Part shown: piece by piece, positions 2 to 6,823 of the stretch
Position numbering within the stretch: position 1 is the stretch's first letter
How the letters are laid out: each line of letters begins with the position of its first letter
Origin: a virus
Lineage: Duplodnaviria > Heunggongvirae > Uroviricota > Caudoviricetes
Virus record (IMG/VR): IMGVR_UViG_2706794691_000013
DNA: 7,202 bases
Direction: 5' to 3' (one strand)
Notes under the pieces: generated by a model
Databases searched by the model: none
What the model was told of the DNA's origin: nothing
What the model saw: only the letters and a program-made list of their open reading frames with translations
Program-made: the position numbers and the translations under genes

Positions 2-127
2 TCATGCCACGATCTAATCGACGGGCGGGTAAAAACCAGCGATTACACCAAAGAAGAATTGCGCCTGATGCATGCTGAAGGGGTTTTTCGCACACAAGAA
101 ATCTGGAGAAAGAAAGGTCATTTATGA
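2..127 (+). CDS. 3' end of an upstream gene (hypothetical protein, C-terminal 41 codons); start lies outside the window
   Basis: Frame 2 is open from the window edge to TGA at 125-127 (...DGRVKTSDYTKEELRLMHAEGVFRTQEIWRKKGHL*). Its stop overlaps the ATG at 124 as ATGA, a typical coupled junction. Function not recognised. Confidence 0.35.
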   Translation, partial: SCHDLIDGRVKTSDYTKEELRLMHAEGVFRTQEIWRKKGHL

Positions 128-598
128 TTTACCCAACGAATACAGGAAAAAGCGGAGAACACCTTCGCCTCACCACGCTGGAAAGTGTCTGGATTCAGGG
201 AAAACTACGTATGTGGGGGCGCTGGTCGTATATTGGCGGTGGCAGGTCAGAGAATGAAAAAAGCGGGAATAGAGAAAGCTGAGCTGGAAGCGTTTTTGCG
301 AGAGATGATCAACGGCAAGCAAAAGAGCTGGCTGGCGCATTGTACTGATGCAGAGGCGTTATGTATTGATCGAGTCATAAGTGAGGTGCTGGCAGAGCAT
401 CCAGGATTGATTTGCATTCTCCGGCAACGCTATGAAGGGCGGGGGATGACTAAGCGCAAAATGGCTGAATTGCTAAATGATGCACACCCAGAGTGGTGTT
501 TTAGCACATGCGAAAAACGGATTGCTAATTGGTTAGCTGTTGCTGAGTATGCCCTATATATTCCCATGCGTGAATCATTTGCTGAGAAAATGGCTTGA
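124..598 (+). pseudogene. Late antiterminator Q homolog (Phage_antitermQ-like), reading frame interrupted; the intact C-terminal ORF is 185/254..598
   Basis: ATG 124 with SD GGAG (104-107) opens a 52-codon frame-1 ORF (124..282) containing IQGKLRMWGRW, which resembles the N-terminal IQxxLxRWGxW motif of E. coli QuuD-type Q proteins (recalled from memory). Frame 2 (185..598) carries the conserved core CTDAEALCIDRV...RQRYEGRGMTKRKMAELL...EKRIANWLAVAEYAL. Both frames are open across 128-280; an A6 run at 257-262 is a plausible indel site. Position upstream of the lysis genes fits Q. Confidence 0.55.
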
Positions 599-678
599 TT
601 TCTTACGTATAAACTGCTTCAATTTTGCTATGCTTCGCAAAGCTGTATCGCGAGGCGGATTGCAGACATGGACATCGT

Positions 679-705
679 AAAAAAACCGCTTAATGCGGTT
701 TTTTT
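679..705 (+). terminator. Intrinsic (rho-independent) terminator, potentially bidirectional
   Basis: AAAAAAACCGC-TTAAT-GCGGTTTTTTT: stem AACCGC/GCGGTT (684-689 / 695-700), 5-nt loop, A-run upstream and 7-T run downstream; about 80 nt past the Q stop. Confidence 0.55.
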
Positions 706-1023
706 ACGTCAGGAAAGCAGGGGAGAATGCTGCTAGTTGGGCAACTGGTCTTTCTGCTCCAAATTATAACAGAGACCAGTTATAGTTTCGGTGCTGTGTT
801 TTTTTTACAATATTGTGATAACACATTGCTGGCGGGAGTTTTGATATTTCTTGGCAGGGGCTGATGATGCGTTATCCTGATGTCGTCAACTCATATAAAA
901 TGAGATGAGAGATCATTGCAGGGTGGTTTGTAATTCGCTGTTTAGCGGGACAATATGTTGTCTGATACAAGACACCCGACGCCTCAGATTACTATAATAA
1001 AGACGAAGCATCCTTTGTATTGA

Positions 1024-1051
1024 CCAACCGCCTGTTTAGGCGGTTCTTTTT
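1024..1051 (+). terminator. Intrinsic terminator (candidate tR'-like)
   Basis: Stem AACCGCC (1026-1032) / GGCGGTT (1039-1045), loop TGTTTA, followed by CTTTTT. Preceded by promoter-like hexamers AAGACA (969-974) and TATAAT (993-998). Confidence 0.5.
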
Positions 1052-1583
1052 GGGCTGGTTTATTGTATGCCAAATGATTATTAAAAAGGTTGTGTTAATA
1101 ACAAGATCCGAAATAATATGCCTGCATATTTTTATCTTGCTTATATTCTGCATATTGTGCATAGCAGGCTCATCCCTGCAATCAAAACTGTATGATGAGT
1201 ATTTTTTGTTTTCCTTTTTTCCAGTCATCTGATGATGACCTGCTTCTTTTTAATCCGGATCGACATCAGTTTTTTAAGATAATNNNNNNNNNNNNNNNNN
1301 NNNNNNNNNNNNNNNNNNNNNNNNNNNNNNNNNNNNNNNNNNNNNNNNNNNNNNNNNNNNNNNNNNNNNNNNNNNNNNNNNNNNNNNNNNNNNNNNNNNN
1401 NNNNNNNNNNNNNNNNNNNNNNNNNNNNNNNNNNNNNNNNNNNNNNNNNNNNNNNNNNNNNNNNNNNNNNNNNNNNNNNNNNNNNNNNNNNNNNNNNNNN
1501 NNNNNNNNNNNNNNNNNNNNNNNNNNNNNNNNNCTTTGTGTAAATGTTAACAAATGTGCGTTTTATTTGATCTGATTCGCTGT

Positions 1584-4439: not shown

Positions 4440-5897
4440 NNNNNNNNNNNNNNNNNNNNNNNNNNNNNNNNNNNNNNNNNNNNNNNNNNNNNNNAANNNN
4501 NNNNNNNNNNNNNNNNNNNNNNNNNNNNNNNNNNNNNNNNNNNNNNNNNNNNNNNNNNNNNNNNNNNNNNNNNNNNNNNNNNNNNNNNNNNNNNNNNNNN
4601 NNNNNNNNNNNNNNNNNNNNNNNNNNNNNNNNNNNNNNNNNNNNNNNNNNNNNNNNNNNNNNNNNNNNNNNNNNNNNNNNNNNNNNNNNNNNNNNNNNNN
4701 NNNNNNNNNNNNNNNNNNNNNNNNNNNNNNNNNNNNNNNNNNNNNNNNNNNNNNNNNNNNNNNNNNNNNNNNNNNNGTNNNNNNNNNNNNNNNNNNNNNN
4801 NNNNNNNNNNNNNNNNNNNNNNNNNNNNNNNNNNNNNNNNNNNNNNNNNNNNNNNNNNNNNNNNNNNNNNNNNNNNNNNNNNNNNNNNNNNNNNNNNNNN
4901 NNNNNNNNNNNNNNNNNNNNNNNNNNNNNNNNNNNNNNNNNNNNNNNNNNNNNNNNNNNNNNNNNNNNNNNNNNNNNNNNNNNNNNNNNNNNNNNNNNNN
5001 NNNNNNNNNNNNNNNNNNNNNNNNNNNNNNNNNNNNNNNNNNNNTTATAGACTTGCAGGAATGCCTTTGTTTGATGCTATTTGTCACGGGATTTCCACAG
5101 TTTCGCTTGGTGGTTTCTCAACTCATAGCGAGAGTATCGGATATTTTAATAACTATTTGGTTGAGCTGGTGGCTGGTTCTTTTTCCCTGCTATCGGCTTT
5201 CAACTTCACTCTTTGGTATATTGTTATTAGCAGAAAAACGATAAAACCTTTAATCAGAGATATTGAACTTCGTTTCTTTCTGTTAATAGCCTTAGGGGTG
5301 ATCATTGTTACCTCTTTCCAGGTCTGGCATATAGGTATGTATGACTTGCATGGAAGTTTTATTCATTCGTTTTTTCTTGCCAGCTCCATGCTCACTGATA
5401 ATGGTTTAGCTACGCAGGATTATGCAAACTGGCCCACGCACACGATAGTGTTTTTGCTGTTGTCAAGTTTCTTTGGGGGATGTATAGGTTCAACCTGTGG
5501 TGGAATTAAGTCACTTCGATTTCTTATACTTTTCAAACAAAGCAAACACGAGATAAATCAGCTTTCTCATCCCAGAGCGTTGTTGAGTGTAAATGTAGGA
5601 GGGAAGATAGTTACAGATCGTGTAATGAGGTCTGTATGGAGTTTCTTTTTTCTTTATACTCTCTTCACGGTGTTTTTTATACTGGTGTTAAATGGTATGG
5701 GATATGATTTTCTTACATCATTTGCAACAGTGGCTGCATGTATTAATAATATGGGATTAGGTTTTGGGGCTACTGCATCGTCATTCGGAGTGCTTAATGA
5801 CATTGCAAAATATTTAATGTGCATAGCTATGATTCTTGGTCGCCTTGAAATTTATCCTGTTATTATATTGTTTTCAGGTTTTTTTTGGCGCTCCTAA
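4440..5897 (+). CDS. trkG: Trk-system K+ uptake protein TrkG (TrkH family); N-terminal part lies in an N-mask and the start is estimated from the ~485-aa TrkG length
   Basis: Frame open from the mask edge (5046) to TAA 5895-5897; the visible 284 aa (YRLAGMPLFDAICHGISTVSLGGFSTHSESIGYF...GGIKSLRFLILFKQ...LEIYPVIILFSGFFWRS) show TrkH-family motifs and match the Rac prophage TrkG C-terminal half as recalled. Confidence 0.8.
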   Translation, partial: XXXXXXXXXXXXXXXXXXXXXXXXXXXXXXXXXXXXXXXXXXXXXXXXXXXXXXXXXXXXXXXXXXXXXXXXXXXXXXXXXXXXXXXXXXXXXXXXXXXXXXXXXXXXXXXXXXXXXXXXXXXXXXXXXXXXXXXXXXXXXXXXXXXXXXXXXXXXXXXXXXXXXXXXXXXXXXXXXXXXXXXXXXXXXXXXXXXXXXXXXXYRLAGMPLFDAICHGISTVSLGGFSTHSESIGYFNNYLVELVAGSFSLLSAFNFTLWYIVISRKTIKPLIRDIELRFFLLIALGVIIVTSFQVWHIGMYDLHGSFIHSFFLASSMLTDNGLATQDYANWPTHTIVFLLLSSFFGGCIGSTCGGIKSLRFLILFKQSKHEINQLSHPRALLSVNVGGKIVTDRVMRSVWSFFFLYTLFTVFFILVLNGMGYDFLTSFATVAACINNMGLGFGATASSFGVLNDIAKYLMCIAMILGRLEIYPVIILFSGFFWRS

Positions 5898-6034: not shown

Positions 6035-6823
6035 ATGAGCGAGAAATTAAAGATAGTCTATCGCCCATTACAAGAATTGTCACCGTATGCGCACAACGCC
6101 AGGACGCACAGTACTGAGCAGGTGGCACAACTGGTAGAAAGTATTAAGCAATTCGGCTGGACTAATCCGGTGCTGATTGACGAAAAGGGCGAAATTATTG
6201 CGGGTCACGGTCGTGTTATGGCGGCTGAAATGCTCAAAATGGATTCTGTTCCGGTCATTGTTCTGTCTGGCCTGACGGATGAGCAGAAAAAGGCGTACCG
6301 CCTGGCAGATAATCGCCTGCCGATGAATGCTGGCTGGGATGAAGATCTGTTGCGGATGGAGCTGTCGGACCTAATCAATGCTGATTTTGATGTCTCCCTG
6401 ACAGGCTTCATCCCGGCAGAAATTGATGAACTGTTGACGGATGTTTTGCCCGGTACAGGAAATGAGGAGGAGCCGTATACGACGAAAATTGATACGCCTG
6501 TTTATGAGCCGTCAGGCGGTAAACCGGATATCAGTGAACTGTACGACGATACGAAAACTCAGGAGCTGATCAGCCGGATACGTTCGGCGTCCCTTGATCC
6601 TGATATTGAGAAATTCCTCCTGTGTGCAGCAGAACGTCACACGGTGTTTAATTTCAGCAGAATTGCGGACTATTACGCTCATGCCCCCGCTGAAATTCAG
6701 TGCCTTTTCGAGGAGTCGGCGCTGGTGATCATTGATTATCAGCAGGCTATTGAAAATGGATTTGTCCGAATGACGCAGCGCATGGTGGAGATCATGCATG
6801 GCGGGGAGGAGGAATATGCGTGA
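6035..6823 (+). CDS. ynaK: ParB-like nuclease domain (ParB/Srx fold) protein, full-length YnaK-like
   Basis: Complete 262-aa ORF. N-terminal ParB-N-like domain with the GHGR motif (IIAGHGRVMAA) and an acidic C-terminal half; N-terminus matches E. coli K-12 Rac YnaK as recalled (that copy is truncated); sits directly downstream of trkG, as in Rac. Confidence 0.8.
   Translation: MSEKLKIVYRPLQELSPYAHNARTHSTEQVAQLVESIKQFGWTNPVLIDEKGEIIAGHGRVMAAEMLKMDSVPVIVLSGLTDEQKKAYRLADNRLPMNAGWDEDLLRMELSDLINADFDVSLTGFIPAEIDELLTDVLPGTGNEEEPYTTKIDTPVYEPSGGKPDISELYDDTKTQELISRIRSASLDPDIEKFLLCAAERHTVFNFSRIADYYAHAPAEIQCLFEESALVIIDYQQAIENGFVRMTQRMVEIMHGGEEEYA

Follow-up and report, generated by a model that had tools for sequence, protein, structure and literature searches.

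The stretch of DNA analysed here, referred to as the window, comprises 7,202 nucleotides (nt) of the IMG/VR virus record IMGVR_UViG_2706794691_000013 (Caudoviricetes), and corresponds to late-region sequence from a Rac-like lambdoid prophage of Escherichia coli. The element in question is a non-coding region that follows the gene of a Q-like antiterminator, a protein of the DUF1133 family, and that contains two hairpins with the form of terminators. Positions 560–1283 of the window occur in ~445 complete genomes at 99.9% identity. Masked runs of N in the window keep their original length, and their content was read from the near-identical record L001 (NZ_CP021726). The gene order in L001 is DUF1367, DUF1364, the DUF1133 protein, a gap of ~1.2 kb, two genes for TolA C-terminal (TolA-C) domain proteins, essD, rrrD, Rz, trkG, and ynaK. 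No tRNA genes were found in the window.

The region probably holds two transcription modules that are unrelated to one another: a late leader linked to Q, with hairpin 1, and a decayed small RNA (sRNA) element, with hairpin 2. Carrying this reading are the stability of the hairpins, the conservation of the region, the positional logic of its parts, the co-segregation of the leader with the Q family, and the homology of the DUF1133 protein to Q21. The architecture is that of ordinary lambdoid late control for an uncharacterised Q family, and the layout is otherwise textbook. The features discussed below are as follows.

124–598, plus strand: gene for a Q-like antiterminator of the DUF1133 family, disrupted, with open reading frames (ORFs) at 124–282 and 185–598
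595–623, plus strand: candidate late promoter (analogue of pR'), with -35 hexamer TTGATT at 595–600, a 17-bp spacer at 601–617, and -10 hexamer TTCAAT at 618–623
629–657, plus strand: conserved leader box TATGCTTCGCAAAGCTGTATCGCGAGGCG, which begins with the invariant -10-like TAnGCT at 629–634 (TATGCT in the window)
630–705, plus strand: leader RNA of ~75 nt, predicted to end at hairpin 1 and equivalent by position to 6S RNA of lambda and IsrJ of Salmonella
676–708, no strand assigned: hairpin 1, an intrinsic terminator (tR' analogue) that is bidirectional in form
759–1051, plus strand: conserved non-coding block, which ends exactly at the T-run of hairpin 2
841–868, plus strand: promoter-like TTGATA-16-GATGAT, inside the best-conserved stretch 832–870
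874–1051, plus strand: putative degenerate STnc100-like sRNA element, with a core remnant ACACCCGACGCCTC at 972–985, an A/U-rich linker, and hairpin 2 as its 3' terminator
969–998, plus strand: promoter-like AAGACA-18-TATAAT, a 10/12 match called by the promoter scan
1026–1051, plus strand: hairpin 2, an intrinsic terminator with an 8-bp stem at 1026–1045, a 4-nt loop, and then CTTTTT
1346–1532, plus strand: bona fide copy of STnc100, masked in the window and read from L001 7787–7973 (86.6 bits with Rfam model RF02076, against a gathering threshold of 47)

Coding potential in 599–1659 was considered and rejected, since six-frame tblastn against the diverged copies gave similar results in all frames and start codons are lost. 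Small ORFs, including a hydrophobic one at 1074–1232, were discarded on the same six-frame evidence.

A sequence-only reading of the region had proposed terminator hairpins at 679–705 and 1024–1051, and both are present. Hairpin 1 has perfect 14-nt arms at 676–689 and 695–708 (CGTAAAAAAACCGC and GCGGTTTTTTTACG) around the loop TTAAT. It folds at -14.1 kcal/mol (z-score -4.5), and none of 200 shuffled sequences folds as well. A run of seven A residues precedes the hairpin and a run of seven T residues follows it, giving it a terminator-like form on both strands. A consensus scan missed this hairpin because A:T pairs were counted as stem, thereby using up the T-run. Hairpin 2 folds at -12.4 kcal/mol (z-score -4.3), again with none of 200 shuffles as good. 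On the minus strand there is no T-run at hairpin 2, which has the form of a terminator on the plus strand only. With a stable, G+C-containing stem-loop and a U-run directly after it, both hairpins are real intrinsic terminators in form and are predicted to stop transcription.

The stems had also been described as related. Both indeed contain AACCGC...GCGGTT, but this says nothing about kinship, because CCGC-type cores are generic in this group of phages: a CCCGC/GCGGG or CCGC core is found in nearly all of the ~46 terminators located 3' of DUF1133 Q genes. That the two hairpins arose as copies, by duplication of a terminator module, is extremely improbable. The shared six-nucleotide motif would fit such an origin, but similarity does not extend past it, with loop, flanks, and tail all differing, and the two hairpins sit in different mosaic modules that have different distributions. 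In close relatives of the window, hairpin 1 is replaced by at least five other hairpins.

The gene upstream of hairpin 1 encodes the presumed antiterminator. Its intact homologue (L001 6497–7039) matches Pfam DUF1133 at 2.5e-107, and PF06530 at 8.6e-6, a borderline match of 26.1 bits against a cut-off of 26. A profile built from 47 Enterobacterales homologues matches the structures of Q21 (6p18/6jnx) with an E-value of 1.6e-9 over nearly the whole length of the protein. By this homology, the DUF1133 protein is a distant member of the Q21 family and a putative antiterminator. It differs from the proteins of the three named Q families in belonging to a separate Pfam family, which is labelled only 'domain of unknown function', and it lacks the ~13-residue loop of the DNA-binding motif of Q21. 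In the window itself, a 68-nt deletion near position 255 (251–256) shifts the reading frame of Q. The missing nucleotides are present in L001 at 6629–6691, and in all of the top-matching complete E. coli genomes. The frameshift lies either in the source genome of the window or is an edit within the window. Since Q is frameshifted here, only the short leader RNA would be expected.

A Q cassette has been defined as the Q gene, the promoter PR', a sigma-dependent pause element, and a terminator (bioRxiv 10.1101/651190). The region immediately downstream of the DUF1133 gene was read for this layout in phages and in 51 genomes ranging from Escherichia to Edwardsiella, with Q proteins sharing 31–99% identity. 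The same order recurs 3' of the Q gene in Escherichia, Citrobacter, Serratia, Yersinia, Xenorhabdus, Proteus, Providencia, and Edwardsiella: a promoter, a TAnGCT box, an A-rich spacer, and a terminator. In the window, the -35 hexamer TTGATT overlaps the TGA stop codon of Q (596–598), an arrangement that is found in at least 40 loci. Elsewhere the hexamer at or overlapping the stop codon is TTGACT or TTGACA, followed by a partly conserved spacer of 16–17 bp, while the -10 is TATAGT, TAGTAT, TAAATT, or TATGAT where the window has TTCAAT. Positional alignment places promoters of the form TTGACT/TTGACA-16-TAnnAT in the Providencia, Proteus, Xenorhabdus, Yersinia, Serratia, and Edwardsiella loci. 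The TAnGCT hexamer lies 5–8 nt 3' of the -10 in every lineage, often as TGnTAnGCT. In about 46 of the 55 loci with a full-length DUF1133 Q, a terminator starts 45–111 nt after the stop codon. A strict sigma-70 scan at the stop codon is passed by 16 of 46 distinct loci (for example by TTGACT-16-TATAGT), as opposed to 18 of 956 control windows (~2%).

The order of elements next to Q matches that of the defined cassette, and the Q-linked late unit is therefore assigned to 595–705, with hairpin 1 as its candidate terminator. The sequence-only reading had already suggested a unit resembling pR'/qut/tR' that is served by Q. Such a unit very probably exists, but it had been attached to the wrong hairpin, hairpin 2. 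The distance from Q of about 400 nt, which had seemed unusual, disappears, as the cassette abuts the stop codon.

Within this unit, conservation is concentrated at the promoter and the start of the predicted transcript. In 80 closely related IMG/VR sequences, there is almost no variation in the promoter or in the first 28 nt of the predicted transcript, while the rest of the leader and the terminator are swapped among at least five unrelated hairpins, a terminator being present in every case. BLAST homology to many relatives stops at position 657. Many E. coli relatives and phages share only 560–657 (the 3' end of Q plus 59 nt), and some only 609–657; in one phage record, an ORF6N gene is located between Q and the 609–657 piece. 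The spacer at 601–617, which is conserved across genera, is a candidate Q-binding element, and TAnGCT at 629–634 is a candidate sigma-dependent pause element. The conserved ~28 nt of the transcript include a near-palindrome, GCTTCGCGAAGC, and a recurring 5' stem-loop, represented in the window by a 7-bp stem (GCTTCGC/GCGAGGC) that spans 632–656.

Several further readings of the leader were examined and rejected. Complementarity of the IsrK kind between the leader and a downstream RNA amounts to short inverted repeats at chance level, and sigma-54 or minus-strand promoters, judged by eye, do not fit the conserved blocks. A transcript starting at A630 would open with AUG and could encode a leaderless peptide of 16 residues, MLRKAVSRGGLQTWTS (630–680). 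This peptide is probably meaningless; the AUG is not conserved in other loci, which have TACGCT or TAAGCT.

A further indication that the leader belongs with its Q gene comes from some Salmonella, E. coli, and Shigella prophages in which another cassette has been inserted directly 3' of the DUF1133 Q gene. This insert consists of true isrK, c4-a1b1, and C4 antisense models followed by an ORF6N antirepressor, and resembles the immI cassette of P1. Where it is present, the leader module is shifted to a position just behind it, as in the Salmonella locus L022. In Gifsy-1 loci of the LT2 type, the same slot is filled by isrJ (100 bits), 836 nt from the 5' end of isrK; the published coordinates for LT2 give 837 nt (PMC2330248). 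The AntQ protein encoded upstream of isrJ in these loci belongs to PF06323 (the Q82 family), and not to DUF1133. AntQ of Gifsy-1 has been studied experimentally (PMC4825925). Among isrK-containing IMG/VR loci with enough flanking sequence, DUF1133 Q genes are accompanied by the window-type leader at 13 loci and by the isrJ type at none, while PF06323 Q genes are accompanied by the isrJ type at 11 loci and by the window type at none; these loci are phylogenetically non-independent, which reduces the weight of the counts. Leader type and Q family thus stay together even with an 840-bp insertion between them, as would be expected of a cognate Q-utilisation site. This co-segregation suggests that the leader module contains a cis-acting site specific to its own Q, that is, a cognate Q-binding element.

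IsrJ is a 74-nt sRNA whose ends have been mapped experimentally and for which a virulence phenotype is reported (PMC2330248). When placed by position on L022, its 5' end falls on the A of TACGCT, which corresponds to A630 in the window; the spacing from the -10 agrees with the same predicted start. The shared slot suggests that IsrJ may be the terminated leader of a late promoter used by the Q82-family AntQ, and that 'island sRNAs' of the IsrJ type may be terminated late leaders. Two related ideas were rejected. IsrK itself is not a pR' leader, since isrK leads the P1 c4/immI-like cassette, and AntQ is not a DUF1133 protein, as LT2-type AntQ is PF06323. As a separate observation, in Gifsy-1-like prophages isrK and the Rfam c4-a1b1 target model fall on the same sequence, with a C4 antisense RNA and an ORF6N antirepressor next in line (L153 405–479 and 1239–1315; L022 2088–2268 and 2890–3000), and the locus known as 'isrK-orf45-anrP' looks like a P1 immI-type cassette.

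Given the position shared with IsrJ, the module beside Q might instead be a free-standing trans-acting sRNA of the IsrJ or IsrK kind, or hairpin 1 might be the end of an early Q transcript or a bidirectional insulator, in each case with no loading of Q. The sRNA in the equivalent slot has a virulence phenotype (PMC2330248), the Rfam comparison shows a weak isrK-like architecture, hairpin 1 is symmetrical, and the promoter hexamers in E. coli are poor. Against it stand the co-segregation of leader type and Q family across the 840-bp insertion, the match of the layout to the defined Q cassette, and the invariance of the -10-like TAnGCT with which the transcript would begin. This alternative is quite unlikely, although an sRNA role and a Q-leader role are not mutually exclusive for this module.

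If the Q-linked leader is correctly identified, late transcription would proceed as follows. A sigma-70 promoter over the Q stop codon would start transcription near position 630, and polymerase that still contains sigma would pause at TAnGCT, where Q would be loaded. Without Q, transcription would stop at hairpin 1, yielding an RNA of ~75 nt. When Q is present, elongation would continue past both hairpins, the STnc100 terminators, and the moron genes as far as essD-rrrD-Rz and the structural genes. Promoter activity, the start site, pausing, Q loading, the efficiency of termination, and the expression of this RNA and of the sRNA downstream are, in this scheme, predicted.

This arrangement is similar to the Q cassettes of lambda, 21, and 82, which have a Q gene, an abutting promoter, a -10-like hexamer, a short leader, an intrinsic terminator, and then the lysis genes. 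The 6S RNA of lambda is the terminated product of its Q-dependent late cassette. Further points in common are the homology of the window Q to Q21 and a leader type that is specific to the Q family. In contrast to lambda, where the leader is 194 nt long, that of the window is ~75 nt. The conserved box (GCTTCGCGAAGC...CGCAAGC) also does not resemble any qut site that is known, the -10 of the E. coli version is poor, and the cassette was read here from the sequence alone. With IsrJ (RF01393, Gifsy-1), the leader shares its slot: a ~75-nt terminated RNA after Q or the immI cassette, upstream of the late genes. It differs from IsrJ in showing no sequence similarity to it; IsrJ is found with PF06323 AntQ, and in the literature it is a virulence-related sRNA and not a late leader. 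IsrK (RF01394) also combines a 5' hairpin, a spacer, and a terminator in ~75 nt directly after Q, and gives a weak cmscan match at 632–705. However, true isrK overlaps the c4-a1b1 target model and stands ahead of C4 RNA and an ORF6N antirepressor, none of which is found in the window.

It is tempting to speculate that DUF1133 proteins form a fourth branch of Q, related to Q21 but without the minor-groove loop, with a loading site unlike the known qut sites that may involve a downstream DNA element or an element in the nascent RNA, as the ~28 nt of conservation into the transcript hint, and that the terminated leaders, including IsrJ, are 6S-like by-products that were recruited as trans-acting sRNAs. 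This wider proposal is doubtful.

The second hairpin belongs to a different part of the mosaic. It closes a conserved non-coding block (759–1051) that elsewhere directly follows tRNA-Thr/Gly or tRNA-Ile/Thr/Gly genes in other prophages. The block is 69% identical to the copies in L013 and L014, is present also in L268 and L269, and has no frame-specific conservation. Its last part, 970–1051, recurs in three classes of E. coli genomes. The copies in L007 and L267 (~93% identical) are flanked by iraM and a TolA-like gene, and there is no Q in their vicinity. Those in L013 and L014 (~70% identical) follow tRNA-Ile/Thr/Gly in prophages with a PF06323 Q, and those in L268 and L269 come after a DUF1133 Q, its leader module, and tRNA-Thr/Gly, ~390 nt upstream of a holin gene. 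The unit with hairpin 2 occurs with two unrelated Q families or with none, and therefore it is not a cognate qut site. Across the copies, the stem ACCGCC/GGCGGT is kept while the loop varies (TGTTTA, TGCTTA, TTAGCA, or ATATCT), and homology to L268 and L269 ends right after the T-run.

The identity of this block is suggested by its better-kept homologue. STnc100 and PasD have been described as a family of sRNAs encoded by prophages (bioRxiv 10.64898/2026.05.13.724894). These RNAs (RF02076) come from lambdoid late regions and are ~180–200 nt long; their core hairpin, CCGGGAGGCACCCGG, is joined by an A/U-rich linker to the terminator at the 3' end. The homologue of window 874–1051 in L013 (3116–3310) aligns over the full RF02076 model with 28.6 bits (E-value 1.7e-4; gathering threshold 47). 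In this alignment, the terminal hairpin is hairpin 2, and TATAAT lies in the A/U-rich linker. Like the STnc100 terminator, hairpin 2 is a Rho-independent terminator located ~40–60 nt past the core, at the 3' end of an element in a prophage late region. The core CGGGAGGCACCCG is common to the L013-type homologue and true STnc100 copies; L013, L268, and L007 carry TCGGGAGGCACCCGA, in which a base pair at the foot of the stem has undergone a compensatory change. The family core (CCGGG-AGGCA-CCCGG, then CACC) is incomplete in the window. A sequence-only profile of true STnc100 copies matches only the core motif, in L013 and L268, and finds nothing in the window. A genuine copy of STnc100 is located ~300 nt downstream of the window element. 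On balance, the comparison slightly favours hairpin 2 being the terminator of a decayed element of the STnc100 type. The sequence-only reading had offered a small RNA as a fallback, and for hairpin 2 this comes closer, as the hairpin terminates, at the 3' end, a block whose alignment with STnc100 runs over its full length but stays below the threshold.

The best-conserved parts of the block are 752–800 and 832–870, rather than the 969–998 hexamers. The 40-nt stretch at 832–870, TTTTGATATTTCTTGGCAGGGGCTGATGATGC, is ~90% identical to L013 among copies that are ~70% identical overall. It could be a promoter or a 5' structure of the STnc100-like element, and the TTGATA-16-GATGAT within it is a possible promoter of that element. 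Near the upstream edge of the block, at 743–781, the two 9-nt arms of an inverted repeat (AACTGGTCT/AGACCAGTT) pair perfectly across a loop of 21 nt, and a run of eight T residues comes after them at 798–805. The sequence TGTGTTTTTTTTAC, near 743–808, recalls the 3' side of hairpin 1. L013 does not conserve the repeat's 5' arm. The T8 run was considered as the site of a third terminator and rejected, as the folds there are weak (z-score about -1).

The promoter hexamers that had been noted upstream of hairpin 2 fare unevenly. AAGACA-18-TATAAT is called by the promoter scan, with a 10/12 match, but promoter-like calls in 1–1700 are at chance level (5, compared with 3.3 +/- 1.8 expected), and TATAAT at 993–998 is replaced by TAATAACAAT in L268 and L269. 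The other pair, TTGTAA/CAATAT at 929–957, is not called by the scan, and that stretch is poorly conserved (~46% identity to L013). The alignment with STnc100 indicates that AAGACA-18-TATAAT is probably the A/U-rich linker of an sRNA-like element rather than a promoter, and the TATAAT upstream of hairpin 2 would accordingly belong to this linker and not to a late promoter.

Two other readings give these hexamers a function. In the first, a late promoter and qut site lie at ~969–1005, with hairpin 2 as tR'. A 10/12 match stands directly upstream of a good terminator, and in L268 and L269 the unit is ~390 nt upstream of the holin gene, in a geometry similar to pR'-tR'-S of lambda. Yet it is in these same two records that TATAAT is lost, and the unit is seen with two unrelated Q families and without Q. 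No -10-like pause element occurs in the 20 nt that separate the hairpin from the putative start, and another cassette, specific to the Q family, adjoins Q. Such a late promoter is very improbable. In the second reading, the unit is an independent sRNA gene, in which TATAAT drives an RNA of ~47 nt (~1005–1051) that ends at hairpin 2. A perfect -10 with a usable -35, a BLAST core of the diverged copies that spans exactly 970–1051, and a U-rich tail with an unstructured 5' part, as in sRNAs of the Hfq type, all fit this idea. It is nevertheless unlikely: L268 and L269 lose the -10 but keep the terminator, the putative seed is not conserved in L013, conservation is higher upstream (752–870) than in the unit, and the linker and terminator are the parts of STnc100 to which this segment aligns.

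A number of observations weigh against the interpretation of the region as a Q-linked leader followed by a decayed STnc100-type element. With respect to the leader, antitermination by DUF1133 proteins is predicted from homology, and the AntQ of Gifsy-1 that has been tested belongs to another family, PF06323. The candidate promoter of the window, TTGATT-17-TTCAAT, matches at only 8 of 12 positions, has no A at -11, and is called by neither scan. A poor -10 (TTCAAT or TGAATT, which lack the A at position 2) is common to the versions in E. coli, Klebsiella, Enterobacter, and Citrobacter, and these do not pass the strict scan. In TGnTAnGCT, the TAnGCT could itself be an extended -10, which would move the start ~10 nt downstream, and the start near A630 was transferred by position from IsrJ, an RNA of unrelated sequence. 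Most lineages have the 5' stem-loop, but its register shifts from one to another; it has z-scores of about -1 when folded singly (-4.4 for the Klebsiella type), and is not consistent by column; RNAalifold on the leader alignment supports the terminator only. Hairpin 1 has a G+C core of just 4 bp (CCGC/GCGG), which gives -5.5 kcal/mol without the A:U extension. Neither Rfam family of comparable leaders includes the module. The isrK model (RF01394) scores 21.6 bits at 632–705, mostly from the terminator, against a gathering threshold of 50 and the 67–79 bits of true isrK loci, and the isrJ model (RF01393, gathering threshold 37) has no match at E-values up to 10 in window 580–1080 or in the L022 module.

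With respect to hairpin 2, the score of the L013 homologue lies under the gathering threshold, and the link to STnc100 is made through the L013/L014 variant and one core motif of 12–13 nt. In the window, a 17-nt deletion has removed the 5' arm of this core hairpin, leaving only ACACCCGACGCC at 972–983. Neither the window copy nor the L007-type copy has an Rfam match to STnc100.

The cassette is found next to Q in 1,838 of 5,426 complete E. coli genomes (approximately a third), with up to five copies per genome. If it is indeed a Q-linked late unit, it would control the expression of lysis genes and of moron and toxin genes in these prophages. Correct placement of promoter and terminator shows where the late switch is to be sought, and carries the warning that pairs of a promoter and a terminator located further downstream may be relics of sRNAs and not targets of Q.

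A literature search for 'DUF1133' and for the sequences of both hairpins gave no matches.

The remaining observations concern the surroundings. The masked stretch 1284–1533 covers the genuine STnc100, and L007 has four copies in the equivalent region; elements of the STnc100 type seem to be dispersed between the moron genes in prophages of this kind. The two proteins with a TolA C-terminal domain (1643–2071 and 2222–2609; PF06519 at 2.4e-23 and 1.1e-14) have lipoprotein-like N-termini, and their genes sit between Q and the lysis genes, the usual position of morons. A promoter-like TTGAGC-18-TATAAT (1584–1613) lies ahead of the first of them. After the lysis cassette come trkG (5061–5897) and the ParB-like ynaK (6035–6823), as in the Rac prophage of E. 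coli K-12. The window is a more complete relative of Rac, in which ydaW is a remnant of the same DUF1133 Q. Finally, DUF1133 Q genes are also found in contigs (L021 and L027) that are labelled Candidatus Nanosynbacter, where the protein has 100% identity to that of E. coli, and Vagococcus sp., where it has 58%; these are probably enterobacterial contamination of those assemblies.

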